Below, piece by piece: positions 5,202 to 47,199 of a DNA stretch of 64,000 bases (within the stretch, counting starts at the first letter, position 1; every line of letters begins with the position of its first letter). Source of the stretch: Treponemataceae bacterium (GTDB taxonomy: Bacteria > Spirochaetota > Spirochaetia > Treponematales > Rectinemataceae); contig CAXXGJ010000006.1 of the NCBI GenBank assembly GCA_963677895.2, positions 128,001-192,000 on the forward strand. The letters are read 5' to 3'. The position numbers and the translations under genes were made by a program. Below the pieces are notes generated by a model. That model was not told the DNA's origin and ran no database searches. It saw nothing but the letters and a program-made list of their open reading frames with translations.

Positions 5202-5203
5202 GT

Positions 5204-6253: not shown

Positions 6254-6260
6254 TGTCAGC

Positions 6261-7355: not shown

Positions 7356-7369
7356 TCTATTCTCCTGAT

Positions 7370-11284: not shown

Positions 11285-11416
11285 ATTTGGAAAGTCCGAT
11301 CGTAAAGCCCGGAAGGGTTCCCCGGGCGGGGTTTCCTTCCGGACGGAAGGCCGCGAGGCGGCAAGCGTTTCGTCGTCATGACGTCGCGCTCGCGGCCGGG
11401 AGGCCTTCCTTCAGCG

Positions 11417-13165
11417 TCAGAACTGCTTGGTCAGCAGGTGGAGGTCCACGAGTTTGGTGCCGAAAATCGCCCTGTCGAGATTGCCGACTCTGGGATGGGT
11501 TCCGAAGAGGACGTTTTCATAGACCATCGGGAAGTAGGGTTTGTCGGTCATGAGCTGGGTCTGGACTTTGTCGTAGGCAGCCTTGCGCGCCTTCGGGTCC
11601 AGGGTGTAGCGGCCGAGGGCGATGTTGGCGTTGACGATGTCGTTGTTGTAGACGGCGCCGTTCATGCCCGTGCCGATGGAGTCGCCGTTGTAGATGATGC
11701 AGGTGTAGTCGGGGTCGCCCGTGGGGGTGAACCAGCCGGTCACGACCATGTCGTAGCCTTCGCCTGTCTTGCTCATCTGGATGATCTGGGAGTTGACCAT
11801 CGGCGTCACTTTGATGAGGTCGATGCCGAGTGTGGTCTTGACCTGGTCCTTGATGTTGTTGGCGATCTTCACGCGGTCGGTGATGTTGCCGACGTCAAGC
11901 TGGACGATTTCGGGAGTGAGTTTAGCCCTGAATTCGGGGGAAAGGGCGGCGAACTCGGCCTTGGCCTTCTCGCGGTCGAAGTACCAGTCCTTTTCGGTGA
12001 ATTCGGCGAAGGGGGTGCCTTCGGGAGCGCCCTCGACGTGGCCGAGGAAGCCGGGCTGCATCATCTGGTTGGCGGGAATGGCGTTGCCGTTGAAGAGGTC
12101 TACCTGCCTGATGAAGGGGATAGGATTGATCGAATAGAAAATCGCCTTCCTGAGGTGGGTGGAATCGCCTTCGGTATATTTTCCGGAGAGGTCGAGCTTG
12201 CCGTTCACCTTCTGGCCGACGAGGTCGGAGTTCATGCTGAACACGCCGTACCAGATCGTGAGGCCGGGCTTGGAAGTGATGTTGATACCGGATTTCTCGA
12301 TGCTCTTGATGTCGAGCTTGGAGAGGTTGAAGGCCATGTCCACTTCGCCGGTGATGAGGACGTTGTTGACCTGGGGCTGTTCGGACATCGCCCTGAACTG
12401 GATGTTCTTGAAGGCCAGGGTTTTCGGATCGTTCCACCAGGCATCGTTCCTGGTGACGTTGACTTCCTGCGGGTTCGGGAAGGAGACGAACTTATAGGGA
12501 CCGGTTCCGGTCACGATCTTGGTGCCGTAGTCGGCGCCCGCCGCTTCGACGGTCTGGCTGTCCTCGATGCCCGAGCAATAGTGGGCGAGGATGTTGAGCG
12601 CCGGGCCGTAGGGAGAAGCTACCATGTACTTGGCCCTGTCCGCCCAGGAGGTGAGGGGGATGGTGGCGTATTCGGGGTTCTTGAGCTTGCCCCAGGTGAT
12701 CTTCACGGTGTATTCGTCCACTTTCTCGACCGAGAGAATGGCGCTGAACATGGACTTGGAGCTCGACTTGGGGTGATGCAGGATGCGATTGAAGGAGAAT
12801 ACGACGTCGTCGGCGGTGAAGGCGTTCCCGTTGTGGAATTTCACGCCTTTGCGCAGTTTGATCGTATAGACCGAACCGTCTTTCGACACGAGTCCGTTCT
12901 CAACGGTGGGGATGGTGTCGGCGAGGACGGGGTAGAACTTATAGTCCGGGGTCATGCCGACGAGTGTTTCGTTGATTTCGCGCATAACCTGCGCTTCGTT
13001 CAGGGTCGTGTAGAGGTTCGGGTCGAGGGGCTGGGGCGCGGCCGCCAGGACGAACACGAGGGTGTCCGCGTCGCGGTTGCGGAGCGCGGGGCCCTTGGCG
13101 CCCTGGGCGAAGACGACACCGCCCATCATGAGAGCGATGACCAAAACCGTCATTAGTTTTTTCAT
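11417..13165 (-). CDS. Peptide ABC transporter substrate-binding protein (family 5)
   Basis: Signal peptide MKKLMTVLV..., LRKGVKFHNG, FTADDVVFSF, GTGPYKF. Confidence 0.9.
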   Translation of the reverse strand: MKKLMTVLVIALMMGGVVFAQGAKGPALRNRDADTLVFVLAAAPQPLDPNLYTTLNEAQVMREINETLVGMTPDYKFYPVLADTIPTVENGLVSKDGSVYTIKLRKGVKFHNGNAFTADDVVFSFNRILHHPKSSSKSMFSAILSVEKVDEYTVKITWGKLKNPEYATIPLTSWADRAKYMVASPYGPALNILAHYCSGIEDSQTVEAAGADYGTKIVTGTGPYKFVSFPNPQEVNVTRNDAWWNDPKTLAFKNIQFRAMSEQPQVNNVLITGEVDMAFNLSKLDIKSIEKSGINITSKPGLTIWYGVFSMNSDLVGQKVNGKLDLSGKYTEGDSTHLRKAIFYSINPIPFIRQVDLFNGNAIPANQMMQPGFLGHVEGAPEGTPFAEFTEKDWYFDREKAKAEFAALSPEFRAKLTPEIVQLDVGNITDRVKIANNIKDQVKTTLGIDLIKVTPMVNSQIIQMSKTGEGYDMVVTGWFTPTGDPDYTCIIYNGDSIGTGMNGAVYNNDIVNANIALGRYTLDPKARKAAYDKVQTQLMTDKPYFPMVYENVLFGTHPRVGNLDRAIFGTKLVDLHLLTKQF

Positions 13166-13281
13166 GCTGATTTCCTCCCTTGGAAACAGTGAAAATGTAA
13201 GGCTGCTACGCAACCTACAAGGACAATATAAAAGCGCGGCGAGGGTCTGCTTGCGGACAGGACGCTCCCGATCGCTTCTTT

Positions 13282-14124
13282 TCAGGTGAACGCGGCGAAT
13301 TTGCCGCCTAGCATGGCCACGACGTGGAGCATCCGGTAAATCTCCCGGAAATCGCCGCTGGAATAGCGCACCGAGCGCCCCGAAGTTCTCGTAAGGCCGG
13401 GGATCGCGGCTACGGCGTCGGCCACGACGGTGGATGAGAGTTCTATGTCGAGCTGGGTCGCGGCCGCGGCGGGAAGGGCCTTGAACGCGGAAAGGCGATC
13501 GAGGGCCTTCGTCGCGCCCGCGACGAACTCGCCTTCAAGCCTTTCCGGCGCGTACATTTTTCCGGCGAACCGGCCAAGGCCTTCCTTGGTCCTCACGTAG
13601 ACGGGCATCGGTTCGAATCGGCCATTAAGCTGGGACTCGAGGATATTGTCGCCCGAGATGAAGCAGACCGGGACGCCGTAGAAACCGGCCAGCCTGGCGT
13701 TGATCTCCGTCTCGCCCGATTCCACGCCGTCCAGCCGCACGCGGTATATGCAGGAAGCCGAATAGGAATGGTCCATCATGCCGCCCTCGGAACCTATGGA
13801 CGCGTGGTAGCCGACGAGGAAAAGACCGGAATAGCTTTCGTCGAGGCCTTCCAGCATGTAATAGGGGCGCGGATAGCCGCGCACCATGGTGACGCGGGGA
13901 TCGCCGAAGCCTTTGAAAGGGACGCCTTCGCCCCTGGCGTGGGAATCGCAGACGCAGATTTCCTCGATTTCGGCGTCGCGCGGCGAGGCGGCGAGGCCGC
14001 GCAGAATCCAGGATATCTCCAGCCAGGCGCGTTCGTAGTTGGCGGCTCTGGATGGTCCCTCGAGGTCGCTCCAGGAGGTGGTTCCGTGGATGCCTTCCAT
14101 GTCGACGGATATGAAAAGTTTCAT
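13282..14124 (-). CDS. D-aminopeptidase DppA-type (peptidase M55)
   Basis: MKLFISVDMEG start, DSH, VGYHA, HSY, ISGD motifs; ATGA overlap with the rpiR stop. Confidence 0.9.
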   Translation of the reverse strand: MKLFISVDMEGIHGTTSWSDLEGPSRAANYERAWLEISWILRGLAASPRDAEIEEICVCDSHARGEGVPFKGFGDPRVTMVRGYPRPYYMLEGLDESYSGLFLVGYHASIGSEGGMMDHSYSASCIYRVRLDGVESGETEINARLAGFYGVPVCFISGDNILESQLNGRFEPMPVYVRTKEGLGRFAGKMYAPERLEGEFVAGATKALDRLSAFKALPAAAATQLDIELSSTVVADAVAAIPGLTRTSGRSVRYSSGDFREIYRMLHVVAMLGGKFAAFT

Positions 14125-14987
14125 TGCTTCTCCGAAATTTCGTGGATCGTCGTGTAGCCGCTTTCCTGCATCGAAAGCGTCGAACTCCGGGCTTCGATCG
14201 AACTGTCCTTGGCGCTTAGGAATACCGTATGGACGAGAATATTCATGGTGGAAACAAGCCCGACATAGGAATTCGCCAAAAGAAGGGAATTGGTGTCGCA
14301 TCGCACAACGACATCGGCGAGGGAATAGATGGGGCAAACCGCCGAATCGGTGAAAAGGTGGAGCGTACCGCCCTTTTCTTTCACTACCTGGGCGACATGG
14401 CGGACTTCGTCGGAATACGGAGGGAAGGTCATGATGAACATGGTGTCATCTGCCGTAAAAGTACGCAGACGGGGAGAATAGTCGGACACAGAGCCTGAGA
14501 TGACCATCACATCCTTGTTCACCGAGCACATGAGCGTATATTCGAACATCCTCGCCATGTGACCCGAGATGCCGAAACCGCAGATAAAAATTCTCCTCGA
14601 ATTCCTGATGCTGTCGGCCATTGTCTGCAGGTCTTTCACCCTTATGTTCTCGAAGGTGTTGCGGAGGTTGTTCACTTCATTCAGGAAGAGTTTCTGGAGG
14701 CGTTTCTCTTCCGGCATGCCATCGAGTTCACGGAGCGCTATCTTATCGTAGGGGCTTAGGCGGAACTTTATCTCGTCCTGGATTTCGCGCTTGAAGCTTT
14801 GGTACCCGTCCAGGTCCAGGCTTTTCGCGAAGCGGACAAGGGAAGCGTTGCTGACGCCGATGGCCTTGCTGATGACATAGATGGAAGCGAAAGCGACGCT
14901 CTGCTCGTGGTCGAGAATATAGGAGCCAATCTTCTTGAAATTCGGGGGCATGTCGGGAAGCGCTTTTTTTATTTTTTCGAGTATCAT
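14121..14987 (-). CDS. RpiR/MurR family transcriptional regulator
   Basis: HTH (GVSNASLVRFAKSL...GYQSFK) followed by a SIS domain. Confidence 0.88.
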   Translation of the reverse strand: MILEKIKKALPDMPPNFKKIGSYILDHEQSVAFASIYVISKAIGVSNASLVRFAKSLDLDGYQSFKREIQDEIKFRLSPYDKIALRELDGMPEEKRLQKLFLNEVNNLRNTFENIRVKDLQTMADSIRNSRRIFICGFGISGHMARMFEYTLMCSVNKDVMVISGSVSDYSPRLRTFTADDTMFIMTFPPYSDEVRHVAQVVKEKGGTLHLFTDSAVCPIYSLADVVVRCDTNSLLLANSYVGLVSTMNILVHTVFLSAKDSSIEARSSTLSMQESGYTTIHEISEKQ

Positions 14988-15232
14988 GGCGTCTCGAATC
15001 CTCCTGGAAGCCTGAAAACTGGAAGGCTGCAATGCGTGAAACTTATGTTTCCAAAGTCTTGCACGCCGAAACTGCGGTGTCATCTTTTTTTTTCGATATT
15101 TATAGCTTTTTTATCGACTAAAACGGTTAAGCGGCGGGAGTATTTAATAATGTGTTAGGACTCGGGAAGGACTTTTCTCAGTATGCTATACTTCTAGCAT
15201 CGCTTCTGTTCCGCAGATAAGGAGAAACCGCA

Positions 15233-15571
15233 ATGAAAATTGTCTATATAATCGTAATTCTTCTGGTAGCCATCGTGGCCGTCGTTTTCGCGCTTCAGAA
15301 CAGCGCCATGATCACCGTGACTCTGTTCAGCGGTTCGGTGTCGGGTTCGCTTTCTCTCTTCCTTATCGTCACCTTGGCCATCGGCATGATTCTCGGCATG
15401 TCGCTGATGGTGCCCGCGATTTTCAAGCGCGGCAGGCTTTCTTCGGGGCTGAAGCGCCAAGTTTCGGCGCTGGAAAAGCAGGTTGGCGAGTTGAGCCAGC
15501 AGGCGACCGAAGCTTCGGCGACGGCCGCGACGGCCGCGTCGGCCGCTTCGGATGCGTCGGACGCAGGCTGA
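15233..15571 (+). CDS. LapA/DUF1049-like small membrane protein
   Basis: Two TM helices with FALQN and a coiled-coil tail; AGGAG RBS. Confidence 0.75.
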   Translation: MKIVYIIVILLVAIVAVVFALQNSAMITVTLFSGSVSGSLSLFLIVTLAIGMILGMSLMVPAIFKRGRLSSGLKRQVSALEKQVGELSQQATEASATAATAASAASDASDAG

Positions 15572-15587
15572 GCCGGGAGCGATCCGA

Positions 15588-18005
15588 TTATCGCTTCTTC
15601 CGGAACAGGTCGGCGAAGGGATTATAGGTCATGCCATCGTCCTCCCTCTCCTTCGGCGCGGGGCGCTGCGGGGAAGGCCGCTGCCCGGAGCGCTGATCGC
15701 TCCGCTGTTCCGGACGCTGCTCGGGCCGCTGCGGGGAAGGCCGCTGCTCTGGTCGATGTTCAGGCCGCTGTTCCGGACGGCCGCGGGAATCGCCGGCGGG
15801 CCGCGCCACGACCCTGACCGCTTTTTTCGGACCCTGGTCGCCTCCCGCTGGGTTCCTGTCGGTCTTCAGCGAGAGCCCGATCCTGTGGCGCGCCTCGTCC
15901 AGGCTGATGATGGTGAATTCCCTCACGTCGCCTACCTTGATCGCTTCCATGGGGTCGCGCACGAACTGATTCGAGAGCTCTGAAATATGGATCAGGGCGC
16001 TTTCCTTTATGCCTATGTCGACGAAGGCGCCGAAATCGACGACGTTCTTCACCTTGCCCGTGACCTTCATGCCCTCCTTGAGGTCGGAGAAGTTGAGGAC
16101 ACCCTTCGAGAGTATGGGCGGCGGCAGGTTTTCGCGCGGGTCGCGGTTGGGTTTCTTCAGCTCGACGATGATGTCGTCCATGGTGGTGTCGCCCACCGAG
16201 TATTTTTCGCGCAGAGCGGTTCGCTGTTCTCGCGAGGGATCGGCGCCCGCCTTGATGAACTGGAGGATTTCGGCGGCCAGGGCGTAGTTTTCGGGGTGAA
16301 CCCAGGTGTTGTCGAGTTCGTTGGCGCTCTCGGGAATCTTGAGGAAGCCAGCGCACTGTTCGAAGGTCTTTTCGCCCAGGCCGGGGATCTGGGTGAGCAT
16401 GTCGCGCGACTTGATCGCTCCCTTTTCTTCCCTGAACTTGACGATTTTCTTGGCCAGGCCCCCGTTGATGCCCGAAACGTACTTGAGGATGGCGTGGCTC
16501 GCGGTGTTGAGGTTGACGCCCACCTGGTTGACGACGGAGCCGACAACCTCGTCCAGCTGCTCGGTCAGCTTTTTCTGGTTGACGTCGTGCTGGTAGAGGC
16601 CGACGCCGATGCTTTTGGGATCGATCTTGACGAGCTCGGCGAGGGGGTCCTGGAGGCGGCGGCCGATGGAGATGGCGCCCCTGATGGTGAGGTCGAGGTC
16701 GGGGAACTCTTCCCTGGCGATGTCGCTGGCTGAATAGACGGAAGCTCCGTCCTCATCCACGGCGGTGAACTTGCATTCAAGGCCGTTCTCCTCGATCGAG
16801 GCGGCGACGGCGGCCTGCACTTCGTGGCTGGCGGTGCCATTCCCCACGGCGACGATCTCGATGCGGTGCTTCTTGACGGAGGCGGCGATGGCTTTCTTGG
16901 CTTCCTCGAGCTTCGTTTCCTGATTGATGACGAAATAGTCGAGGAACTTGCCCGTCTCGTCCAGGGCGGCGCACTTGGTGCCGGTGCGGATGCCGGGGTC
17001 CACGCCGAGAATCCTCGAGCCGCGCAGGGGCGGCTGCATGAGGAGGTTCTTGAGGTTTTCGGAGAAGACGTCGATGGCGTGGGTTTCGGCGTACTCGGTG
17101 GCGTCGGAGCGGATTTCGCGGATGACGGCGGGCGAAAGGAGCCTAGAGAGGCCGTCCTCGATGGCTTCGGCGTGATAATCGTTATGAATCCAGGCCTTGT
17201 CCTTGAGCAGGGCGGCGGCTCCTTCCTCGTCGACGTCGATGGTGACATCGAGGGCCGATTCGCGCTCGGCGCGGTTGACGGCCAGGACCCGGTGGCTTTT
17301 CAGGGTCGAGAGGGGCTCGGAATAGTCCCAGTACATCTGATAGGTGGACTTTTCGCGGGCGGCATCGTCGCCGACGCCCTTCGTGACGAGCTTGCCCGTC
17401 TTTTTATACCAGGATTTGACGGCGGCGCGCATTTCGATGTTCTGCGAGACGCGCTCGGCGAGGATGTCCTTGGCGCCGGCGATGGCGTCCTGGGCGGTCG
17501 CCACCGAAAGTTCGGGATGTTCCGCGTCGGCGCGGACGAAGCCGGGCGCCGCCGCGTCGACTTCATTCTTTTCCTTTTCGAGCATTATTTCGGCCAGCGG
17601 GCTGAGGCCCTTTTCCTGGGCGAGCATGCCTCTGGTCTTCTTCTTTTTCTTGTAGGGCGCCCAGAGGTCGTCCAGTTCGGTGAGGGTCGAGGCTTTGACG
17701 ATATTTTCGTAGAGTGTTTCGTCGAGCTTGCCGAGGGCGGCGATGCCCTTGGTCACCTCGATCCTGCGTTCCTCGAGGTTCTTGTAGCTCTCGAATTTAT
17801 GGACGCAGTCGCGGACCTGGACTTCGTCGAGGCTGCCGGTTCTTTCCTTGCGGTAGCGGCTGATGAAGGGAACCGTGCTTCCTTCGGCGGTCAGGGTGAT
17901 GACGGCCGATACTTGCGCGGCCTTGATGTTCAGGTCTCCGGCTATCCGGTTCAAAATGGCGATCTCGTTGACTGCCAGTTTTTCTATGTCGGGCAATTGG
18001 CTCAT
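15588..18005 (-). CDS. tex: Tex family S1-domain RNA-binding protein
   Basis: TVPFISRYRKE, GVDPGIRTG, DPKSIGVGLYQHD, S1 domain (NVVDFGAFVDIG). Confidence 0.93.
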   Translation of the reverse strand: MSQLPDIEKLAVNEIAILNRIAGDLNIKAAQVSAVITLTAEGSTVPFISRYRKERTGSLDEVQVRDCVHKFESYKNLEERRIEVTKGIAALGKLDETLYENIVKASTLTELDDLWAPYKKKKKTRGMLAQEKGLSPLAEIMLEKEKNEVDAAAPGFVRADAEHPELSVATAQDAIAGAKDILAERVSQNIEMRAAVKSWYKKTGKLVTKGVGDDAAREKSTYQMYWDYSEPLSTLKSHRVLAVNRAERESALDVTIDVDEEGAAALLKDKAWIHNDYHAEAIEDGLSRLLSPAVIREIRSDATEYAETHAIDVFSENLKNLLMQPPLRGSRILGVDPGIRTGTKCAALDETGKFLDYFVINQETKLEEAKKAIAASVKKHRIEIVAVGNGTASHEVQAAVAASIEENGLECKFTAVDEDGASVYSASDIAREEFPDLDLTIRGAISIGRRLQDPLAELVKIDPKSIGVGLYQHDVNQKKLTEQLDEVVGSVVNQVGVNLNTASHAILKYVSGINGGLAKKIVKFREEKGAIKSRDMLTQIPGLGEKTFEQCAGFLKIPESANELDNTWVHPENYALAAEILQFIKAGADPSREQRTALREKYSVGDTTMDDIIVELKKPNRDPRENLPPPILSKGVLNFSDLKEGMKVTGKVKNVVDFGAFVDIGIKESALIHISELSNQFVRDPMEAIKVGDVREFTIISLDEARHRIGLSLKTDRNPAGGDQGPKKAVRVVARPAGDSRGRPEQRPEHRPEQRPSPQRPEQRPEQRSDQRSGQRPSPQRPAPKEREDDGMTYNPFADLFRKKR
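15655..15785 (-). repeat. Coding low-complexity tandem repeat (RPEQ / RPSPQ units) in the Tex C-terminal tail
   Basis: Translation RPEQRPEHRPEQRPSPQRPEQRPEQRSDQRSGQRPSPQRP. Confidence 0.7.
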
Positions 18006-38164: not shown

Positions 38165-39205
38165 ATGAAAGCCGCCATTTTCGACCAGTTCCGCGCTCCG
38201 ATCCAGATTTCCGAAGTGCCCGACCCCCAGGTTCCCGAGGACGGCGTCGTCCTGGCCGTGGACGCCACCGGCATCTGCCGGAGCGACTGGCACGGCTGGC
38301 AGGGCCACGACACCGACATCAAGCTGCCCCACGTCCCGGGGCACGAACTCGCGGGCACCATTGTCGAAGTGGGCAAGGGCATCAAGAACTGGAAGCGCGG
38401 CGAGCGCGTCACCATGCCCTTCGTGGCCGGCTGCGGGCACTGCGCCCCCTGCCAATCGGGCAACCAGCAGGTCTGCGACCACCAGTTCCAGCCCGGCTTC
38501 ACGCATTGGGGATCCTTCGCCCAGTATGTCGCCATCCACTACGCCGACATGAACCTCGTCCGCCTACCGGACAGCATGGATTCGGTGTCCGCGGCGAGCC
38601 TCGGCTGCCGCTTCGCCACCGCCTTCAGGGCTCTGGAAGCCCAGGCCAGGGTGCGCGCGGGCGACTGGGTCGCCATCCACGGCTGCGGCGGCGTCGGCCT
38701 CTCCGCCGTCATGATCGCCAAGGCCATGGGCGCCCGGATCGTCGCGGTGGACATCCAGAAGGACAAACTGGAAATGGCGCTGCAGCTCGGCGCCGACGTG
38801 GCCATCGACGGTCGCGCTACCCCGGACATCGTCGGCGCCATCAAGGACGTCACGGGCGGCGGCGCCCAGGTTTCCATGGACGCACTCGGCAGCCTCCAGA
38901 CCTGCTTCAACTCGGTGGCCTGCCTCGCCAAGCGGGGGCGGCACGTGCAGGTCGGCCTCATGCTGGGCGACCAGCACCATCCCGCCATCCCCATGGATCT
39001 CGTCGTCGCCCGCGAACTGGAAATCTACGGCAGCCACGGCATCCAGGCCCACCGCTACGACGTGCTCCTCGGCATGGTCGCCGCGGGAACCCTCCACCCC
39101 GAGCGCCTCGTCACCGACCGCTACACCCTCGCCGAAGGCATCGACTTCCTCCAGCGGATGGACCAGTTCCCGGGCACGGGGATCAGGGTGATCGACAGGG
39201 TATAG
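38165..39205 (+). CDS. Zinc-dependent alcohol dehydrogenase family protein
   Basis: GICRSD, GHE, CGHCAPC...C, GCGGVG; start MKAAIF behind a GAGG RBS. Confidence 0.93.
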
Positions 39206-39252
39206 CGATTCAATACCGTGGTAACTCGCTTCATCAACTAGAGTATTAACGC

Positions 39253-39281
39253 TTGACCGCATTGTAATATTAAATTACAAT
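39253..39281 (+). promoter_or_regulatory. higBA promoter with an overlapping palindromic operator
   Basis: TTGACC-N17-TACAAT; ATTGTAAT-ATTAA-ATTACAAT at 39261-39281. Confidence 0.7.
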
Positions 39282-39300
39282 ATAACTCATGAGGTAATAT

Positions 39301-39615
39301 GTGAAGGTTGAGTTTAAAAATTCTCAACTCGAAAAACTCTATTCAACCGGACAATCGAAGAAGTACCCAGTAGGCTCGGCTATCGCGACAAAATTCGTGG
39401 CCGTCGTAGCCAGATTGAAAGCCGCTCAAGACATCCACGATCTTTGGAGACTGCCTTCGCTAAACTTCGAACGACTTCATGGTAACCCGAACAGGTATTC
39501 GGCGAGAGTAACGATCAAGTACCGAGTCGAGATGGAAATAGACTGGGAAAACCAGGAGAAAACCATTGGACTTATCGGTATCGTCGAGCTCTCGAGCCAT
39601 TATGGAGGAAGGTGA
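39301..39615 (+). CDS. higB: HigB/RelE-like toxin
   Basis: 104 aa, LNFERLHG...YSARVTIKYR; precedes an HTH antitoxin. Confidence 0.8.
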   Translation: MKVEFKNSQLEKLYSTGQSKKYPVGSAIATKFVAVVARLKAAQDIHDLWRLPSLNFERLHGNPNRYSARVTIKYRVEMEIDWENQEKTIGLIGIVELSSHYGGR

Positions 39616-40721
39616 CTATGGGCGAACTCAAGCCATTCATCAATATCGGACCCGGCATCGTTATAAAGGATGAACTGGAAGCGCTAGGTTGGTCGCAGGA
39701 TGATCTGGCACGCATCATGGGCATGTCACTGAAAGCCGTCAATGAAATCCTTAACGACAAGGTGGCGATAACAGTCGAAACAGCGCGGCTTCTGGGAAAA
39801 GCATTCGGGACATCGGCGGAAATATGGATAAACCTGGATACGGCATATCGACTTCGCCTCCGAGAAGATACCGAGCGCGAACGGGAAGCCGAACGTTATG
39901 CGGCAGTCATGAAGTACATGCCGGTCAGGGAGATGGTCAAGAAAGGATGGCTAGAAACCTACAACTCGTCATCGGAGCTTTTGGAAAAAGCCAAGAATTT
40001 CTGGAATGTTTCCGAGCCTGATTTCTCATTCTTGGGCAAGGCTAAGGAGCCCTGTTTCAGGCGTTCCGACGCTTATGAATTCTACGAGAAATATTACGCC
40101 CTCACCTGGACCCAAAAAGCAAAGGATACTGCTTCAAGTATACATTTGCCGGAATGGGACAGAACCGCGGCCAAAAAGATTGGAGCAAAGCTCGGCAATT
40201 TCTCTCGGCTCGAGAATGGCACCTCGACATTTATACAGGACTTAGAAGTGGCAGGCATAGGGTTTTTCGTACTGAGCCACCTGCAGAAAACGTATCTGGA
40301 CGGAGCGGCGATTTTCGTCGGCGCGAATCCATTCATCGTCTATACTGGCCGCTTCGATCGTTGTGACAATTTCTGGTTTACCGTAGCCCACGAGTTAGCC
40401 CACCTAGTTCTTGGTCACGTGAAGAAGGACGGACAGGAAATCCTTGATGACCTGAAACAGGAAGCCGGAAACGATCAGGAAAAAGCAGCAGATAAACTGG
40501 CTGAAACCTATCTCCACACTGTGGAAATTCTGGAATTTTGCGCGCCTTTTAAAAAGTATCTCTCGCGCGAGAGGATAGAGCGCTGCGCTGAAACAGTCGG
40601 AGTAAGCCCGGGTATTGTGGTTGGAACCTTACAGTATGCGGGTATCCTGCCGTACAAGAACCTAAATAACTATAAAAGACCAATACTCACGGCACTTCCT
40701 GCATCATGCATCAAGGGATAA
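39612..40721 (+). CDS. higA: HigA-type HTH antitoxin fused to an ImmA/IrrE-like metallopeptidase domain
   Basis: PGIVIKDELEALGWSQDDLA...WINL HTH; DNFWFTVAHELAH (HExxH). Confidence 0.85.
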   Translation: MTMGELKPFINIGPGIVIKDELEALGWSQDDLARIMGMSLKAVNEILNDKVAITVETARLLGKAFGTSAEIWINLDTAYRLRLREDTEREREAERYAAVMKYMPVREMVKKGWLETYNSSSELLEKAKNFWNVSEPDFSFLGKAKEPCFRRSDAYEFYEKYYALTWTQKAKDTASSIHLPEWDRTAAKKIGAKLGNFSRLENGTSTFIQDLEVAGIGFFVLSHLQKTYLDGAAIFVGANPFIVYTGRFDRCDNFWFTVAHELAHLVLGHVKKDGQEILDDLKQEAGNDQEKAADKLAETYLHTVEILEFCAPFKKYLSRERIERCAETVGVSPGIVVGTLQYAGILPYKNLNNYKRPILTALPASCIKG

Positions 40722-40723
40722 AC

Positions 40724-41554
40724 CTAGACATCATCAAAAAGCTCTTTTTGGTATTCATATGGTATCGGTAATACACCAACAATAACCCAAGGGTTAGGAG
40801 CTAAAAAATGAAACTGTTGAGTCGTGCCAAGATAAAAATGGAGATCTTTCTGTACAAATGTGTCGAAGTATTTTGCCCGAACTTTTTCCAAGACTTGTCG
40901 ATCATCTATCCCTGGTTCCTTGAAACAATTCCAATACAACGCCCCAATTTCCCAATCGAGTATTTGAAGCTGACAACTACGCCCTCGATCATCTTCAAAT
41001 CTGTAAGAAAAGCTATATGGCAACTTTTTTATTAGCTTGAAGGTTCTTCGCCATTCATTATCGTCAAATAAATCAAGCTGATTATAAAAACCCCTCATTT
41101 CAGCAACTTTAGATTCATCCCACTCTCGTTCTTCACTTTCTGAGATAAAATCTATAACTCTCGTAGGTTTGAATATCGCCAACGAAGTTATGTTCCGCTT
41201 TGCATCAATGATAAGAGCATCCATATTTGTATATACTTTTGCAGTTTTTAAGAGAATTTCTCGGCGTGCATGCCAATTATTCTCAGTACCAATTCTACCT
41301 ACCGGTTTTAATTCTTCAGGATTTATCGGACTATATGATTCTGGTCTTGGATCTTTGGTTCTCCGGTTTGTCTGGCATTCAATCCAATCATATTTGCTAT
41401 ATTGTTCAGCTTCATCCAGCCTTCGAAACGGCACTGGGTATAACCTTACCCAAGAGCCATCCTCCCTGATACCAGCCGTGCATACGGTTTCGCCATACTT
41501 CATCGATAATGTCGGATACGTTTTAACGGTGATTAGGATACGTTCCTTTGACAT
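40724..41554 (-). CDS. Conserved-looking hypothetical protein, partner of the DUF488 gene
   Basis: 276 aa, ITVKTYP...ETVCTAG...WVRLYP, DWEIGALY, FYLGT; GGAG RBS. Confidence 0.7.
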   Translation of the reverse strand: MSKERILITVKTYPTLSMKYGETVCTAGIREDGSWVRLYPVPFRRLDEAEQYSKYDWIECQTNRRTKDPRPESYSPINPEELKPVGRIGTENNWHARREILLKTAKVYTNMDALIIDAKRNITSLAIFKPTRVIDFISESEEREWDESKVAEMRGFYNQLDLFDDNEWRRTFKLIKKLPYSFSYRFEDDRGRSCQLQILDWEIGALYWNCFKEPGIDDRQVLEKVRAKYFDTFVQKDLHFYLGTTQQFHFLAPNPWVIVGVLPIPYEYQKELFDDV

Positions 41555-41566
41555 ACACCAGCTCCG

Positions 41567-42463
41567 TTACAAATTTATTATTTTTATTTTCTCCTCATGC
41601 GTACTTTCAATTGCTTCAGCCACACAGTGCCTATGGCATTGTTCGGGCAAGTGTTCATAGCACGTCAAGGCAACACTCTCTCCCTCCCTAATCCATATAC
41701 GAATCAATTCTAGTGATTCGCTTTTATTTGGAAGAATATTTTTTTTATATTCTTCGAAAAGATGATCATACTCTGCTTGTGTATCAAGATTTTTTCGTTG
41801 ATCGGACGCAATTCCCAAATCAGGCAAATGCTCATACCTGATTCCAACTCCTGCACAAGCCTTAAGCAAGGTATTCTTAGAAAATCCATATTTCCGGCTT
41901 ATTGGATTGCGACGTACATCACAAAGTAGGCTTACGCCACTTCGAATTAAAATATTCAGATACGCTTCCAGGGACAATCCTTCATACCCAATCGTCAGTA
42001 AGCCAGGACACTTTCTTGGTTTCGCTTCTTCGATTCGCTTCAATGCCTTGATATCTGAATGAAGGACCCTCTCCGCTATTTCACTTTTAATCCCGTAGTA
42101 TGGATATTTTCGATACGTTTCTGCAACTAATTCATCACCTCTCAAGCTTGAGTATTTTTGCATAAAACTGCTGATTTTTGTTTTGATATCGGGAGATACC
42201 ATTGTCGATGCCTCAAATCCCGATTGCGTCAATCGCCAATAATGTTCGTCAGGTGACAGCATTCCAGATTCGACCAAATGTCTGCGATCGGCATAGGATG
42301 TGAAGGAAAAGGCACCATACCGATATGGAATAAACTCGTAAAATGCGTTGACATCACACTCCTGGCAACTGAGAAAAAGTAGTTTCTGGAAGTCAAGATT
42401 TCCGACAGGACCATTAGCTGATGCCAACAGTGCCAGCAAGTATTTTTGTCGATGAAATATCAT
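41567..42463 (-). CDS. Winged-helix (Panacea/SocA-like motif) plus DUF488 domain protein
   Basis: N-terminal FQKLLFL...FIPYRYGAFS; C-terminal TIGYEG, DVRRNPISRKYGFSK, LTCYEH...CHR. Confidence 0.8.
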   Translation of the reverse strand: MIFHRQKYLLALLASANGPVGNLDFQKLLFLSCQECDVNAFYEFIPYRYGAFSFTSYADRRHLVESGMLSPDEHYWRLTQSGFEASTMVSPDIKTKISSFMQKYSSLRGDELVAETYRKYPYYGIKSEIAERVLHSDIKALKRIEEAKPRKCPGLLTIGYEGLSLEAYLNILIRSGVSLLCDVRRNPISRKYGFSKNTLLKACAGVGIRYEHLPDLGIASDQRKNLDTQAEYDHLFEEYKKNILPNKSESLELIRIWIREGESVALTCYEHLPEQCHRHCVAEAIESTHEEKIKIINL

Positions 42464-42511
42464 AGTGTCCTATTTACATTATACGAGAATATTTCAGCTT
42501 TACAAGTTCTC

Positions 42512-42595
42512 TTACTTCAACGCCGTATAGATTTCTTAAAGACTCTCGATACTAACTTCCAGTTTTTCGATGATCTCACCAGCGAGAATGTCAGG
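42512..42595 (-). pseudogene. Probable 3' remnant of a type I restriction-modification methyltransferase (hsdM)
   Basis: Translation PDILAGEIIEKLEVSIESL*EIYTALK* resembles HsdM C-termini (PDVLAxEIxExLE); internal stop. Confidence 0.45.
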
Positions 42596-42628
42596 GTAAA
42601 GTAAAGGGTCACCATCTCTGGGAGCTCG

Positions 42629-42676
42629 GCATAAAGCATGGCAGAAGCGCGCAACGGGTTGAAGCGGTTGTTCGTA
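42629..42676 (-). other. Truncated attC half-site
   Basis: Minus strand TACGAAC-AACC-GCTTCAACC...GCCATGCTTTATGC parallels the first half of the attC at 43276-43400 and lies just after the DUF1801 stop. Confidence 0.55.
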
Positions 42677-42691
42677 AAATATTATTTCTTT

Positions 42692-43075
42692 CTATATTCG
42701 TCTCAATTCTCCATTATTGATTCTTATGTTTTTGTAATCCCATTGTATGCTTAGTGCTTCATCAAGCCACTTATTAAGTTCGTTTTCGTTTGTTTCTTCA
42801 ATTTTTGTATATACCCTTTCCGCAGCTTTGAATTTCCCGATTGGACTTAGCCCCTTGTTGCTGAAGGATTGTCCACTCCAAAAAAGTAGTGCAATTCCAT
42901 TTTTCTTTTTTGAATATCCGACTATCGGATTTTCGTCTATAAACCATACAGGAGCACCATGGTACATTTTTGATGTAGCGTTCTTCAGTTTTAGATTAAT
43001 CAAACCGCAGAGTTTTATGCAAATGTCTTTCAGGGTGCCTTCAAATTGATTGTTGTATTCTTCAAATTGATCCAT
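42692..43075 (-). CDS. DUF1801 (YdhG-like) protein, probable gene cassette ORF
   Basis: MYHGAPVWF..NPIVGYS...LLFWSGQSF...GKFKAA...WDYKNI; GGAGG RBS before MDQF. Confidence 0.8.
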   Translation of the reverse strand: MDQFEEYNNQFEGTLKDICIKLCGLINLKLKNATSKMYHGAPVWFIDENPIVGYSKKKNGIALLFWSGQSFSNKGLSPIGKFKAAERVYTKIEETNENELNKWLDEALSIQWDYKNIRINNGELRRI

Positions 43076-43275
43076 AATCCTCCGATATCTTGCTTGATCG
43101 AAGCAACATCTTTTATATGCTGGACGTATTTGCGCGCGTAGCATCAGGCTAATAAGTATGATGTCCTTCTTCGTAAAATACTTTTGAATAATCTATTTTC
43201 CATTAATATATTGTAGTTAAAACAAATATAACTCTTTTATACAACATAGCTATTTCAGCTCCATATAGTTGATCC

Positions 43276-43400
43276 GACTAACATAAGCTTAACCTTTAAA
43301 GCCTGGCCCGAGCTACTGCGAGGGATTGGCGTGGTTTGTGCATGTGATTTCTGCACAAACCATGCCAAAAGGCTTTATAAGGTTGAAGCATTTGTTAGGA
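43276..43400 (-). mobile_element. Integron attC recombination site (125 bp)
   Basis: Minus strand: R'' TCCTAAC, L'' GCTTCAACC, central hairpin, L' GGTTAAGC, R' GTTAGTC. L'' has one extra base relative to L'. It begins 7 nt after the RT stop. Confidence 0.8.
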
Positions 43401-43407
43401 TTCTTTT

Positions 43408-44730
43408 TTAAGACATTGCACTCATATCTTGTTCAATATCAAGAATACTCTTGTGTATTAATTTTTTAAATTTGTATTGCGCGTCATCTATATTTTTAAA
43501 CTGAATACCGATATAACTTAGTAGTTTTATTATCATATCGTCAGAATATTCATCATAATTGGGTATATATTTTGATTTTATGCCTTTTTTAGTTATTTCT
43601 TTATATACTCTAGATATCTTTTTAATTTTAAGCTCTTCACATTTATACCTTTTCATCTGTCTATTTATAAAGTGATCTATTGAAAATAATTCTTGAATAT
43701 TTTCTGTTTGTGAAAAAAAGAACATCCATCCATACTTTTTGTTTTCCCAAATAAATCCGGTAATTCTCAAGTTTACTCTAAACTCTAGTTTTTTTGGATT
43801 TTTTTTTGCCTGATGCTTATATATTGTTAGAAGACGTATAATAGATTCTTTGAATTTCCTTTTGCTCTTTAATCGAATTGATACTTTTCTATTTGAAAAA
43901 CAATATCCAAGGTAATCAAACTTATCATGAATTGGTGCAACCTTATACTTATCCCCATCATTAAAGACTAACTTGTATTTTTCAATTTCTTTGAATAATT
44001 TATTTTCTAAATACTTCCTATTATCAAAATTACATAAAATTAAAATATCATCAACGTACCTATAGTACTTAATATTTCTTATCTTTGAGATCTCTTTATC
44101 AAATGGAGTTAGATATACATTTGCAAGAATATTTGCTATAGATAAACCTTGCGGAACTCCTTTATCCCTGACAAAAATATCATCAGCTTTGTAAGCAGAA
44201 TTTGTATTTTTAATAGACGCCATAAGCAATTTTATAACTTCAACTTTTCTAATTTTTGTTTTAACTTGTTTTAATAGTATCTCGTGATCTATGCTTGGGT
44301 AATAATTTTTAACATCTAGCTTAATAAAGCAATTATACTGTAAGTCTTTAATACTTTTTGATATATCTGCAATTTGAGTATGCAGCCTTCTTTTTACTAA
44401 TTGTTCGGTAAATGCACTTTCAAGTATTTCGAATAATGCTCTTAAGACTAATCGATCTCTCAAAGTTGGCTTTTCAACAATTCTTGGACAACTATTGTAG
44501 CCTTTTGAAAGTAATTTTGCTTTATAGACAGTAAAACTATACGTTCCTGCCTTACACTTAGTAATAATTAACTCTGTGTGCAATGCAAAATCACGTCGAA
44601 ACTGATGGCTTGTCATTCCATCAATTCCTGAAGTTGCATTTAATCCAATTTTATCATCAAATATTGATAATAAAGCTTTATTTGTAAATATTTTATTAAA
44701 TTTTTCTGCAGAATTTAACTTAATAGCCAT
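43408..44730 (-). CDS. Reverse transcriptase, UG/Abi defence-associated type (UG17/DRT10-like), about 440 aa
   Basis: GIDG, PTLRDRLV, KLDVKNYYPSIDH, GVPQGLSIANILANVYL, YYRYVDDILI, FDYLGY; start MAIKLN overlaps the SLATT 3' end; no maturase/HNH domain evident. Confidence 0.9.
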   Translation of the reverse strand: MAIKLNSAEKFNKIFTNKALLSIFDDKIGLNATSGIDGMTSHQFRRDFALHTELIITKCKAGTYSFTVYKAKLLSKGYNSCPRIVEKPTLRDRLVLRALFEILESAFTEQLVKRRLHTQIADISKSIKDLQYNCFIKLDVKNYYPSIDHEILLKQVKTKIRKVEVIKLLMASIKNTNSAYKADDIFVRDKGVPQGLSIANILANVYLTPFDKEISKIRNIKYYRYVDDILILCNFDNRKYLENKLFKEIEKYKLVFNDGDKYKVAPIHDKFDYLGYCFSNRKVSIRLKSKRKFKESIIRLLTIYKHQAKKNPKKLEFRVNLRITGFIWENKKYGWMFFFSQTENIQELFSIDHFINRQMKRYKCEELKIKKISRVYKEITKKGIKSKYIPNYDEYSDDMIIKLLSYIGIQFKNIDDAQYKFKKLIHKSILDIEQDMSAMS

Positions 44731-45290
44731 ATAAATATTCCTATCGGGATAACTAAGTAAATCAGAATTATTATTAGCCAAACTACTATATTTCGTATAA
44801 TAAAATAGCTCCATTCAAAAAATGATGGATTTGGAACAGTATTATTCTCAGAAGGATTTGTGGTTTTTCTAAGAAAACACTGAATAATTACTTTTTTATA
44901 ATCATATTCTGAGTGATTTTCAGTTTCCCTAAGCAATTGATCATATTGATCTTCAATATTCGCTGTACTATCATTTCTGTTTTCTGCAGAATAAGCATCA
45001 CTTATTAGTTTCCCGATACTAATATATTGTTCTTTTACTTGTCGGCATTCTTGTTTAAAATCTTTCTGCGATAGTAAAAGCGATACAACTAATACAATAA
45101 TCGAACCGAGCACTGAAAAGGTGTTTCTAATAGAGGAATCAACATTAGAAGGTATGATAGATACAGCAATAAGTAAAATTGAATACCACGGAATCAAGTA
45201 AGTACAGATTTTATAATTGAAATTCAATCTTTTTTCCATATTAATACGTACTTTTCTTGTAATCCACATTCTATCACTTAGCTTATTCAT
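44715..45290 (-). CDS. SLATT-domain membrane effector (SLATT_5-like)
   Basis: MWITRKVRINMEKRL, two TM helices, helical region, Y..LL..TENH...DY, C-terminal TM; GGAG RBS. Confidence 0.8.
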   Translation of the reverse strand: MNKLSDRMWITRKVRINMEKRLNFNYKICTYLIPWYSILLIAVSIIPSNVDSSIRNTFSVLGSIIVLVVSLLLSQKDFKQECRQVKEQYISIGKLISDAYSAENRNDSTANIEDQYDQLLRETENHSEYDYKKVIIQCFLRKTTNPSENNTVPNPSFFEWSYFIIRNIVVWLIIILIYLVIPIGIFIWLLS

Positions 45291-45307
45291 AACTACTCCA
45301 AAAAAAA

Positions 45308-45432
45308 GGGGGAATTCTTATAGGAACACCTTAACAACGCTTCTTGCAAAGCTTATCTCTCGATAAAAGCATTACTGCTTTTTTGAATAGAACACCTACA
45401 ATGTAAGCTGTGTAAACACAAAGAATCCCCCC
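45308..45432 (-). ncRNA. Putative RT-associated structured ncRNA
   Basis: Terminal 12-bp stem GGGGGGAUUCUU/AAGAAUUCCCCC (one G-U) encloses hairpins, two with GNRA loops (GUAA, GAGA), plus duplicated AGCUU...AGGUGUUC motifs; directly upstream of SLATT-RT. Confidence 0.7.
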
Positions 45433-45446
45433 AATAATCACAAAGT

Positions 45447-45480
45447 AATCCTAACAATTATTATACCGTTTATCATAAAC
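45447..45480 (-). other. attI-like site / cassette 5' boundary
   Basis: Minus strand GTTTATGATAAAC-GGTATAAT-AATT-GTTAGGATT. GTTAGGATT is the exact reverse complement of AATCCTAAC at the start of the downstream attC. Confidence 0.6.
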
Positions 45481-45700
45481 TACTATTTAGGTAATCTATT
45501 CGCCAGTAACATATGACACCATCATTAGATGTTATATCTCTTTGAGTGATTCCGCAACATTTTTCGTGATTCTTATAATCCTACGTAAGTAATGAAGAGT
45601 AATGCAACTAACGCGATGGGCGCCTTACCATGCATTAACAAAGCCAAGGGTCAATTTACAGCAACTGCCCGCAATCGACAAACTCTTGATATCGTTTTTG

Positions 45701-46444
45701 CTATTTTTTTAAAATACTTGACGCATCGACAATGACTAGCATTTTCTCTTTACACTCATCCCAAAGCCGCGGCTCAGTAACTAGCTCGCACATAAAATGC
45801 GCGACATTAGCCATGGCGGTGGCTTTAGGCTTGAAAAGACTGCTCACAAGGCTCTCGTGTACCTTGTACTCGCTCACGTCGCCCTCTGTGAGGCTATCCG
45901 GGCGCACGACAACCCACTGGATTGCGGGATCGACGAGGCCGATCCTGTCGCGAAGGTAGTCGGCCGCATTCTGATTATCCGAGGCGGGGGGCACGAGGCC
46001 GCGCATGACCCAGAGAAGGGCCTTTTCCAAAACCCCCCGCCGCGCATCGGCAGCGCCTGGCACGTTGACCGAAACACTGCTCATGAGCACGAACTTGACC
46101 GCTTTTTCGGGCTTGAGAGCCTGAACAGCCGCGCAAGCCCTGGCGACGACCTGCGCCACAAGATCCCTGGGCTGACCGAAAATGCCTTTCATTGTCGTGG
46201 TTGTGTGGCCGAGGCAGGAAATGATCGCGTCGCATCCGGCGACGTACCGGCTAAGCTCGTCGTCGCCTAACGACAATAAATCGGCCTCGATTACCTCAAG
46301 CCCCTCCTTGCCGGCAACTCCTTCGGGCAGCCTGGCGCTTGAACGGACGATCGCGCGGACGGTGACTCCGCGTTCCAGAAGCTGCCTGAGGACGCGGCCG
46401 CCGGTGCGCCCGGTGCCACCCAATAAAAGCACGGTGATGTTCAC
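45701..46444 (-). CDS. NAD(P)H-binding atypical SDR (NmrA/BVR-B-like) protein
   Basis: LGGTGRTG, VRAIVRS, WVVVRP. Confidence 0.85.
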   Translation of the reverse strand: MNITVLLLGGTGRTGGRVLRQLLERGVTVRAIVRSSARLPEGVAGKEGLEVIEADLLSLGDDELSRYVAGCDAIISCLGHTTTTMKGIFGQPRDLVAQVVARACAAVQALKPEKAVKFVLMSSVSVNVPGAADARRGVLEKALLWVMRGLVPPASDNQNAADYLRDRIGLVDPAIQWVVVRPDSLTEGDVSEYKVHESLVSSLFKPKATAMANVAHFMCELVTEPRLWDECKEKMLVIVDASSILKK

Positions 46445-46671
46445 GATTCTTCCTCCGAATAGTGGAACACCTCGTTCAGCGGCACGCCGAACACGTTGGC
46501 GATTCGGAAGGCCATCTCCAGCGAAGGAGAATAACGGCCCTGCTCTATCGCGATTATTGTCTGCCTGGTCACACGCACGCGGTCCGCGAGCTCGGCCTGG
46601 GTCATCTCGCCCGCGGCGAACCTGAGCGTCCGAATGCTGTTGGTCACCCTCATCGACGAGTCCATGATCAA
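46441..46671 (-). CDS. XRE family HTH transcriptional regulator
   Basis: MTQAELADRVRVTRQTIIAIEQGRYSPSLEMAFRIA. Confidence 0.92.
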   Translation of the reverse strand: MIMDSSMRVTNSIRTLRFAAGEMTQAELADRVRVTRQTIIAIEQGRYSPSLEMAFRIANVFGVPLNEVFHYSEEES

Positions 46672-47120
46672 TAACCCCTGCGGTAGATGACGATCTTGAC
46701 CACGGAGGACACGAGCCCCCCTATCATCATGGTCAAAAAGAGGGCGTTCGCGATCCAGAACTGGTCAGCCCTCACCATGGCGAGGGCTATGACGCCGAGA
46801 ATGCCCACCGACGCGACGTAGTAGCCGACAAGCTCGCCGCGGCGGTTGATGTGGTCATCCCTCTCGTCTTTGCGGCCGATATCGTCCGCCGAGCCCCTGT
46901 GTCGTATCTCGGCAGCGACGGCGGAGCCGATCGACATGAGTATCATGCCAACGATCGTCGCGACGATAATGGCTCCGATGGCCATGAGCATTGGTTTCTG
47001 ATAGGCGATATGGGCCAGCGGCACGCTTCCCATCTGATTGAGAACAAAGGAGCAATAAATTCCCGTGACCAGCACGGTCACAATGGTTGAAACCCAGGTG
47101 GCTCTCTCTTCGTACGACAT
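46668..47120 (-). CDS. Four-TM membrane protein with a DERD motif, coupled to the XRE regulator
   Basis: MSYEERATW..., KDERDDHI; GGAGG RBS; ATGA overlap. Confidence 0.75.
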   Translation of the reverse strand: MSYEERATWVSTIVTVLVTGIYCSFVLNQMGSVPLAHIAYQKPMLMAIGAIIVATIVGMILMSIGSAVAAEIRHRGSADDIGRKDERDDHINRRGELVGYYVASVGILGVIALAMVRADQFWIANALFLTMMIGGLVSSVVKIVIYRRGY

Positions 47121-47131
47121 CGAAACCTCCA

Positions 47132-47199
47132 ACATGTCAAGAATGTTTGACATGTGCTAATGTAAAGCTATCTATACATTATGTCAAGGATGTTATACA
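47132..47199. promoter_or_regulatory. Three tandem imperfect palindromes (ATGTCAA-N6-TTGACAT type), putative XRE operators
   Basis: acatgtcaagaatgtttgacatgt, aatgtaaagctatctatacatt, atgtcaaggatgttataca. Confidence 0.65.

Follow-up and report, generated by a model that had tools for sequence, protein, structure and literature searches.

Organisation of the locus

We analysed a stretch of 64,000 nucleotides (hereafter the window) from the genome of a Treponemataceae bacterium (assembly GCA_963677895.2, contig CAXXGJ010000006.1, positions 128,001 to 192,000 of the forward strand). On its minus strand lies a compact unit of three parts: a structured non-coding RNA (ncRNA), a membrane protein gene of the SLATT_5 family and a reverse transcriptase (RT) gene of the UG17 class, which is followed by an attC-like recombination site. 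We read the locus as an intact but divergent DRT10 (UG17) anti-phage system that occupies a single integron-type gene cassette of 2,173 bp, and put the probability of this reading at about 0.8. DRT10 as such is a known family; what is unusual is the packing of all three parts into a single integron-type cassette on a spirochaete chromosome.

The initial annotation had described an AT-rich unit from 43408 to 45432, with the leader at 45432-45308, a 191-aa SLATT-like open reading frame (ORF) and an RT of about 440 aa, and all three parts were found where it had put them. Its upper border coincides with the start of the ncRNA; the mobile unit, however, extends to 45454 on that side and to 43282 on the other. 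The low G+C content was also borne out, at 28.9% for the cassette as compared with 33.4% for contig C39 (described below) and 56% for the genome. Both the AT-richness and the sharp borders of the unit are explained by its being an integron-type cassette. Every testable element of the DRT10 reading held, but the cassette and its attC site had been overlooked. This low-G+C unit lies inside the 456,625-base contig C6 and so is not a binning artefact. Moreover, the exact RT and SLATT proteins, as well as the flanking M20 amidohydrolase and NAD-binding proteins, are each recorded on a 1,626,876-base contig from a second assembly. The M20 amidohydrolase falls into the same 90% cluster as a protein labelled 'Spirochaetaceae bacterium', in line with the spirochaete host that had been thought probable.

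The reverse transcriptase and its SLATT partner

The RT (43408..44730, minus strand) matched the PADLOC RT_UG17 profile over its whole length (positions 3-429 of 429, E 4e-131, 435.8 bits), the second-best PADLOC model being the generic RT at 121.8 bits. The longest frame runs to 44814 and would encode 468 aa. However, translation likely starts at Met29 (ATG at 44730), giving 440 aa, since the family match begins at residue 35, the homologues are 436-446 aa long and the 440-aa form is on record. With this start the overlap with the SLATT gene, which the initial annotation had pointed out, is retained but shrinks from 100 nt to 16 nt. The enzyme is intact, as had been claimed. In an alignment of 119 RTs, both aspartates of its YVDD motif (D227 and D228) are invariant (119/119) and V226 is Val in 117. 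A C-terminal E..D....S motif is likewise conserved, and the column of the last residue, Ser440, holds Ser in 77/119 sequences and Tyr in 7, with further RTs ending in Tyr one to four residues on. Ser440 is presumably the equivalent of the priming Ser456 of Eco3DRT10.

Database searches returned 1,666 homologues of the RT at E values up to 0.001. Four of these are close relatives (73, 65, 64 and 50% identity) and the remainder share at most 41% identity, which fits the description of the system as divergent. A search for related loci in genome contigs, with a single protein as the query, found none. The phylogeny was inferred with FastTree from 119 rows (109 translated from loci, 9 database proteins and the window RT), with no outgroup and no references for the published subtypes. 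The window RT falls within UG17 in a 6-row clade (support 100), whose sister group includes a Spirochaetia metagenome-assembled genome. Both are nested in a 31-row clade of environmental anaerobe lineages (support 97). A larger group of 53 rows (support 99) encloses this clade; it includes every one of the 11 Bacillota rows and 5 of the 6 Campylobacterota rows, and is separate from the groups dominated by Pseudomonadota. Subtype UG17-B is excluded because the gene order here is SLATT-RT, whereas that of UG17-B is RT-SLATT.

Could the RT be of another class (a retron, group II intron maturase, diversity-generating retroelement or Abi enzyme), with the SLATT gene a coincidental neighbour? The highest-scoring named NCBIfam model is indeed a group II intron RT/maturase (E 3.5e-37), and the best solved relative by sequence is the GsI-IIC RT (E 2e-20). 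However, NCBIfam contains no UG17 model, and the search of the PDB with the RT sequence returned no chain named DRT10 or UG17. The RT scored far below the NCBIfam cut-offs for the group II intron, Drt3a, Drt2 and retron models (128 vs 300 bits for the first and 50 vs 235 bits for the last). Together with the full-length RT_UG17 match, the position of the RT inside UG17 in the tree and the recurrence of a SLATT-sized ORF beside UG17 RTs (see below), this makes another class extremely improbable. On the PADLOC and NCBIfam scores and the 119-RT tree we ruled it out; the RT does not group with retrons or group II introns, an outcome that the initial annotation had named as a refutation.

The ORF upstream of the RT (44715..45290, minus strand) encodes 191 aa and was identified as SLATT_5 by Pfam (E 1.1e-31, 110 bits vs a cut-off of 29.5) and NCBIfam (121 bits vs a cut-off of 60), and as RTasSLATT by PADLOC (E 9.6e-43, 143.9 bits). 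A Kyte-Doolittle scan gave three hydrophobic segments, at approximately residues 27-50, 53-78 and 157-191. The search with SLATT profiles that had been proposed as a check on a SLATT-like membrane protein thus upheld this assignment. As read from the sequence, the ATG follows five bases after a GGAG ribosome-binding site (45299-45296). An ORF of 130-260 aa ending at the RT start is present in 99 of the 109 UG17 loci.

A conserved structured leader RNA

The SLATT gene is preceded by a DRT10-type ncRNA core at 45308..45432 (minus strand), in which a 12-bp basal stem (SL1, 45432-45421 paired with 45319-45308) encloses four hairpins and two single-stranded loops. The pairing of this stem delimits exactly the structured leader of about 125 nt proposed from the sequence. 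Folding of a 190-nt stretch gave a minimum free energy (MFE) of -50.1 kcal/mol (z -3.25), and none of 200 shuffled sequences was equally stable. A U8 tract (45307-45300) follows the basal stem and is succeeded by the ribosome-binding site, the two together spanning 45296..45307. The U8 tract was not called in a terminator scan, the rule of which requires a loop of 3-8 nt.

The closest comparison comes from a metagenome contig (L083) with an RT 66% identical to that of the window. Aligned from TGTTAGGATTAC as far as the basal stem's 3′ strand, the two leaders share 89% mean column identity. The basal stem nevertheless differs between them, changing from GGGGGGAUUCUU/AAGAAUUCCCCC in the window to GGGGCUCUU/AAGAGCCCC in L083 with full pairing retained, and the changes are therefore compensatory. 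Beyond this relative the leader could not be followed by sequence. Among 163 loci, nhmmer matched only the window's own copy (L081) and L083, all others having E values of at least 0.33, and Rfam gave no match for the leader at E values up to 1 (searched over 43000-46000). This agrees with a comment in the literature that models of the RNA are effective only inside a subtype (10.64898/2026.04.29.721553).

A covariance model (R1) was built from the window locus alone and searched over 100 sources at E values up to 10. It returned 15 hits: the window itself (minus strand), L083, eight sense-strand upstream sites and five others, two of which are the antisense of such sites. Hence 8 of the 13 hits outside the window and L083 lie directly upstream of a SLATT ORF or RT on the sense strand. 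Six of them end just before the SLATT ORF (L003, E 4.7e-5; L063 and L069, 0.021; L092; L074; L048), whilst in L005 and L088 (0.065), for which no ORF was called upstream of the RT, the hit stands at the corresponding distance ahead of the RT. The hits outside the window's own clade are weak (E 4.7e-5 to 3.8). In a seven-locus alignment that leaves out the window, 90.7% of cells are paired, as compared with 46-52% when the partners are slid, and both sides change in 37 of 42 pairs; none of 500 shuffles reached the observed values. Two points count against taking this at face value. The pair counts were made on an alignment that had been fitted to R1 and are biased towards it, and one 3-bp helix predicted by MFE around Loop A is paired in only 41.7% of cells. 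Independent support comes from the basal stems, which are perfectly complementary over 9-12 bp, with differing sequences, in 7/7 of the aligned loci. Without the unsupported helix the layout reads SL1, two hairpins, an 11-nt loop, a hairpin, a 7-nt linker, a hairpin, a 19-nt loop and the 3′ strand of SL1. The leader is thus a conserved structured RNA with an architecture common to other UG17 loci.

Both loops have candidate counterparts in Eco3DRT10, where they measure 12 and 19 nt (10.64898/2026.06.29.735271). By analogy with the 12-nt Loop A, a putative Loop A (GUUCUAUUCAA, 11 nt) was placed between the third and fourth stem-loops at 45383..45393. The candidate Loop B, or template loop (19 nt, 45320..45338), is flanked by the last stem-loop and the 3′ strand of the basal stem, and the 19-nt Loop B of Eco3 has the same position. 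It shows the A-B-A′ pattern UGUU-AAGG-UGUU at 45336-45325. In L083 this becomes UGUU-GAGG-UGUU, with A and A′ kept and B changed. The best candidate for the template is 5′-UGUUAAGG-3′ followed by UGUU, for which the predicted product would be (CCTTAACA)n single-stranded DNA (ssDNA). Two observations speak against the choice. An A-B-A′ pattern with A of at least 4 nt occurred in 30% of shuffled loops and so is not significant alone, and Loop A carries a 3-nt pattern of its own (UUC-UA-UUC). One metagenome variant (at 45385) breaks the pattern in Loop A.

The unit is bounded by integron-type recombination boxes

The attC-like site occupies 125 nt after the RT stop codon (43276..43400, minus strand). 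It consists of TCCTAAC (43400-43394), a long, bulged and imperfect palindrome and GTTAGTC (43282-43276), the two boxes fitting the canonical R″ (RYYYAAC) and R′ (GTTRRRY), and the cassette ends at the G at 43282. As ssDNA the site folds at -35.3 and -37.8 kcal/mol with R″ and R′ paired and single-base bulges. The other edge of the unit is an R′-type box, GTTAGGA (45455-45449), within which the cassette proper starts at the TT, at 45454. The same box in L083 is the end of the attC that belongs to the cassette before it. The homology between the window and L083 begins exactly at TGTTAGG (G|TT) and ends within the attC, and no alignable sequence is found between them upstream of the 5′ junction. 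At least three sites of this attC family are present in L083, one following its first ORF, one preceding the RNA and one following the RT. Positions 1-5890 of L083 form a cassette array with a block-wise G+C content of 26-44%. There, ORFs of 498 aa and 203 aa precede the DRT10 cassette and ORFs of 184 aa and 177 aa follow it, with attC-like sites after the first two ORFs and after the DRT10 cassette. Such a site after the RT is rare among the UG17 loci, L083 being the only one (1/107) of the other loci with enough downstream sequence. An antisense control of the scan was positive only for L083, as expected of a palindrome.

We called attC sites with a scanner of our own. The family of the window's site numbers 51 copies of at least 80 nt (70-91% identity) in the genome, and its consensus boxes, cCTAAC and GTTAGgt, stand at the exact edges of conservation. 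Forty-four of the copies are on C39 (46.4 kb), all on the plus strand and separated by gaps of 428-3,528 nt. This contig is one cassette array of co-oriented, approximately 125-nt attC-like repeats, cut at both ends, with 58 of its 69 ORFs on the array strand and no integrase among its genes. PADLOC was run on 57 of these 69 ORFs (non-nested, at least 70 aa; 56 plus-strand and one minus), with three that span locus borders and nine minus-strand ORFs left out. At E values up to 1e-5, 3/57 ORFs matched, with a TIR-like stretch and twice with mad2. The integron-type recombination boxes at the two ends of the unit in the window belong to one family with those of the 44-cassette array of its host.

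The other seven copies are solitary, one each on C2, C5, C6 (that of the window), C13, C18, C28 and C30. Each of the six outside the window follows 0.5-3 kb of lower-G+C DNA (27-37% beside the site) set in host-like DNA, and cassettes seem to be scattered round the chromosome outside the array. Five of them (C13:9905-10025, C2:326084-326194, C28:15186-15279, C5:6025-6157 and C18:529579-529666) have 1-3 kb of approximately 27-34% G+C before them, in host DNA of 50-66%. The sixth (L204:4909-5038, minus strand; region L204:1695-5038 of C30) is followed by a UG9-type RT and an RT-associated PolA-like gene (E 1.5e-91). This RT is split over three ORFs of 139, 260 and 135 aa, covering profile positions 12-136, 142-389 and 411-540. 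The unit has a G+C content of approximately 29% and adjoins a type II cytosine methyltransferase, with a 295-aa tyrosine recombinase 7 kb away on the other strand.

Metagenome contigs provide a further view of the site. Their summed depth is 350-16,700 over 43300-43383, as compared with approximately 2-12 over the genes, and many short contigs continue from the attC into differing sequences. One contig of 2,104 nt covers only 43374-45456, and a second continues into unlike sequence past 45457. By blastn, neither the cassette body nor the upstream 245 nt nor the rest of the island described below recurs elsewhere in the genome. Nor did our scanner find a further attC-like site in 39000-46200, including round the DUF1801-like gene and PDC-M19.

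Several results weigh against a cassette of this kind. No attI, and no attC of this family, was found upstream of it. None of seven matches in the genome to the integron integrase model TIGR02249 (0/7) exceeded the cut-off. The best, the 295-aa tyrosine recombinase on C30, scored 156 bits vs 265 and leaves positions 179-235 of the model uncovered, and among the NCBIfam models it matches XerA/integron integrase best (178.8 bits vs 220). No clean empty site was present in 20 related genomes, and no joint of a circular cassette (43282-45454) occurred among the metagenome contigs. Only one of the related genomes (G005, 1/20) shares the flank, and there the homology stops at 45667 and gives way to unrelated host-like DNA. 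The integrase may be unassembled, since C39 is truncated at either end and the completeness of the assembly is 92.8%. In its present form the array comprises clustered attC sites but no integrase, and the DRT10 copy is a solitary cassette, which we infer to have been moved by an integron integrase.

An alternative is that the DRT10 system is genuine but the 125-nt repeat is another kind of dispersed palindrome, either REP/MITE-like or the site of a different recombinase, in which case C39 would be no integron. The missing integrase and attI would fit this, as would an extra 22-nt arm that the window site has relative to the L083 copies, and the scanner was home-made. However, the canonical RYYYAAC and GTTRRRY boxes lie at the exact edges of conservation and pair with single-base bulges, the 44 copies on C39 are co-oriented with most ORFs on their strand, and the homology of two cassettes diverged to 66% begins at G|TT. 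Moreover, attC sites of 115-132 bp have been reported from Treponema integrons (PMC3607928). On balance we regard a non-attC palindrome as unlikely and retain the integron-type cassette.

Selection on the cassette and its possible expression

Natural variants were collected from two metagenome runs, and the counts given here are among the variants listed. Over both genes there are 17 synonymous and 10 nonsynonymous variants (one site being counted in both overlapping genes) at approximately 373 synonymous and 1,526 nonsynonymous sites, giving a dN/dS of approximately 0.14. The SLATT gene contributes 5 synonymous and 4 nonsynonymous variants and the RT 13 and 6, respectively, whilst a 161-nt stretch of the RNA has a single change. 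Both genes are thus under purifying selection, and all parts of the system are present, intact and conserved.

The 5′ edge of the cassette is just 21 nt away from the basal stem of the RNA. A promoter can hardly sit inside such a gap and must lie at least partly outside the cassette, so that expression probably depends on where the cassette sits. Two negative results on expression count against the favoured reading: the promoter scan called no sigma-70-type site ahead of the RNA on its own, minus strand, and none of the 22 runs listed for the locus is an RNA run. By eye, a lone TATAAT is present at 45465-45460, 5 nt upstream of the junction, placed so as to start transcription approximately at the junction.

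The cassette could also be intact but silent, stored without a promoter away from the main array and conferring no protection where it now sits. The 21-nt gap and the failure to call a promoter both favour this. So does the biobank model, under which most cassettes of chromosomal integrons are unexpressed (10.1101/2024.07.02.601686; PMC13434031). Against it stand the purifying selection on both genes, the TATAAT just outside the junction and the position of the cassette in a defence island beside PDC-M19, as well as the constitutive production of cDNA by DRT10 in E. coli (PMC12632851). We consider a silent copy rather improbable, although less so than a non-attC palindrome.

Comparison with known systems and proposed mechanism

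In DRT10, the RT, the SLATT protein and the ncRNA are all required for defence (PMC12632851, Tang et al. 2025). The RT synthesises protein-primed tandem-repeat ssDNA from an A-B-A′ template in an RNA loop, the primer being a C-terminal Ser or Tyr (Ser456 in Eco3 and Tyr444 in Eco1). Three UG17 subtypes, each with its own kind of RNA, have been described, as have control by SbcB and a phage SSB-like trigger (10.64898/2026.04.29.721553, Sanchez-Nieto et al. 2026). The general statement made at the outset, that UG17 RTs with a SLATT gene and an ncRNA constitute DRT10 and make tandem-repeat DNA, matches both sources. Cryo-EM structures place two RTs on one pseudo-symmetric RNA with a Loop A and a Loop B, the template being in Loop B (10.64898/2026.06.29.735271; 10.64898/2026.10.08.757509).

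The window locus resembles Eco1-3DRT10 and the UG17-A system of Escherichia sp. E3659 in its order of ncRNA, SLATT_5 and RT with overlapping genes. It shares with the Escherichia systems an RT of approximately 440 aa with YVDD and a C-terminal Ser, and an RNA of approximately 125-143 nt with a basal stem, five stem-loops and a 19-nt 3′ loop, in which a candidate A-B-A′ pattern stands at the expected place here. The two loops measure 11 and 19 nt here and 12 and 19 nt in Eco3. In contrast, its RT is only 27-41% identical to all fetched UG17 RTs outside its own clade, and nhmmer detected no sequence similarity between its RNA and those of DRT10 loci other than L083. It also differs from Escherichia DRT10 in that it groups with environmental anaerobe lineages, not with Pseudomonadota groups, and in its spirochaete host and integron-type cassette.

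On this basis a mechanism can be proposed, the steps of which rest on homology with the E. coli systems; the biochemistry, the choice of template and the trigger are extrapolated from them. The RT would bind the 125-nt ncRNA, perhaps as two RTs per RNA as in Eco1 and Eco3, and DNA synthesis would be primed on its own C-terminal Ser440. The short template in the 3′ RNA loop would be copied and the product realigned on the downstream repeat of the template's first bases, yielding the tandem-repeat ssDNA predicted above. Infection may then change the amount or state of this ssDNA, so that the SLATT membrane protein would be switched on and the infected cell stopped.

Defence systems in integron cassettes are established. 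In RefSeq integrons, 783 systems have been counted, never with more than two components and mostly toxin-antitoxin pairs, Shedu, AbiV and PD-T7-4 (10.1101/2024.07.02.601686, Darracq et al.), and the subject has been reviewed (PMC13434031, citing Kieffer et al. 2025). As with these systems, the window unit forms one cassette that has its own attC, and the genome bearing it also holds a large chromosomal cassette array whose attC sites are homogeneous. Unlike them, it packs two proteins and an RNA into 2.2 kb. The main text of that survey contains none of the terms DRT, reverse transcriptase, SLATT, retron or UG17, although its supplementary tables could list DRT types. Similarly, neither integron nor attC is mentioned in the main texts of PMC12632851 and 10.64898/2026.04.29.721553, and a full-text literature search found no title or abstract that links DRT10 to integron cassettes, although supplementary tables of preprints could list cases. 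Spirochaete integrons themselves are known from Treponema (PMC3607928, Wu, Doak and Ye 2013), where attC sites measuring 115 and 132 bp have been reported from T. brennaborense and T. succinifaciens. The present genome resembles these in its host lineage, its long co-oriented array and its long attC sites. It differs in that no intI was recovered and in that the DRT10 copy is a solitary cassette outside the array.

As an instance of DRT10 the locus adds little, the family having been characterised genetically, biochemically and structurally since 2025. It does, however, represent a divergent clade from a phylum that the published scheme of subtypes does not mention, and its RNA, alignable only by structure, helps to define what is invariant in DRT10 RNAs. 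It also provides a concrete case of a three-component, RNA-dependent defence system in a single integron cassette, where the published survey reports at most two components. Finally, it offers a testable link between the position of a cassette and the expression of a constitutively active, potentially toxic RT system. We tentatively suggest, at somewhat less than even odds, that a whole RT immune system travels here as one cassette that is transcribed from outside. The activity of DRT10 would then be set by position and switched by integron shuffling, and one UG17 subclade (the window, L083 and perhaps P0002-P0005) would have specialised in the cassette as a vehicle among anaerobic environmental bacteria. 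It may be noted beside this that the same genome has the UG9-type RT and its PolA-like partner adjoining another attC copy.

Genomic surroundings

The cassette is part of a wider, composite island at approximately 39,200-45,667, which also holds an HTH-M78 gene (approximately 50% G+C), PDC-M19A/B (approximately 40%) and a DUF1801-like ORF. The latter (42692..43144, minus strand, 150 aa) is the neighbour just outside the cassette, and its match to Pfam DUF1801 (E 2.2e-5, 25.2 bits) is under the cut-off of 27.2. PDC-M19A (DUF488, 41567-42463) and PDC-M19B (40724-41554), which together span 40724..42463 on the minus strand, constitute a candidate defence pair that follows the DRT10 cassette directly and in the same orientation; both gave full-length PADLOC matches (E 3.1e-104 and 6.5e-110, respectively). 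At the left edge of the island, and convergent with PDC-M19B, a plus-strand gene (39612-40721, approximately 50% G+C) encodes a 369-aa protein with an N-terminal HTH_3 domain and an M78 (ImmA/IrrE-like) peptidase.

On the other side, upstream of the NAD-binding gene, lies a pair of genes of host G+C content (46441-47153, minus strand), in which a 76-aa XRE-type HTH protein overlaps a 161-aa membrane protein with a weak 8xMP match (E 0.003, under the cut-off). Lastly, in contigs from two groundwater runs 45708 is joined directly to 45567, so that 140 nt are missing between the NAD-binding gene and the region upstream of the cassette; relatives therefore differ by an indel at this position.

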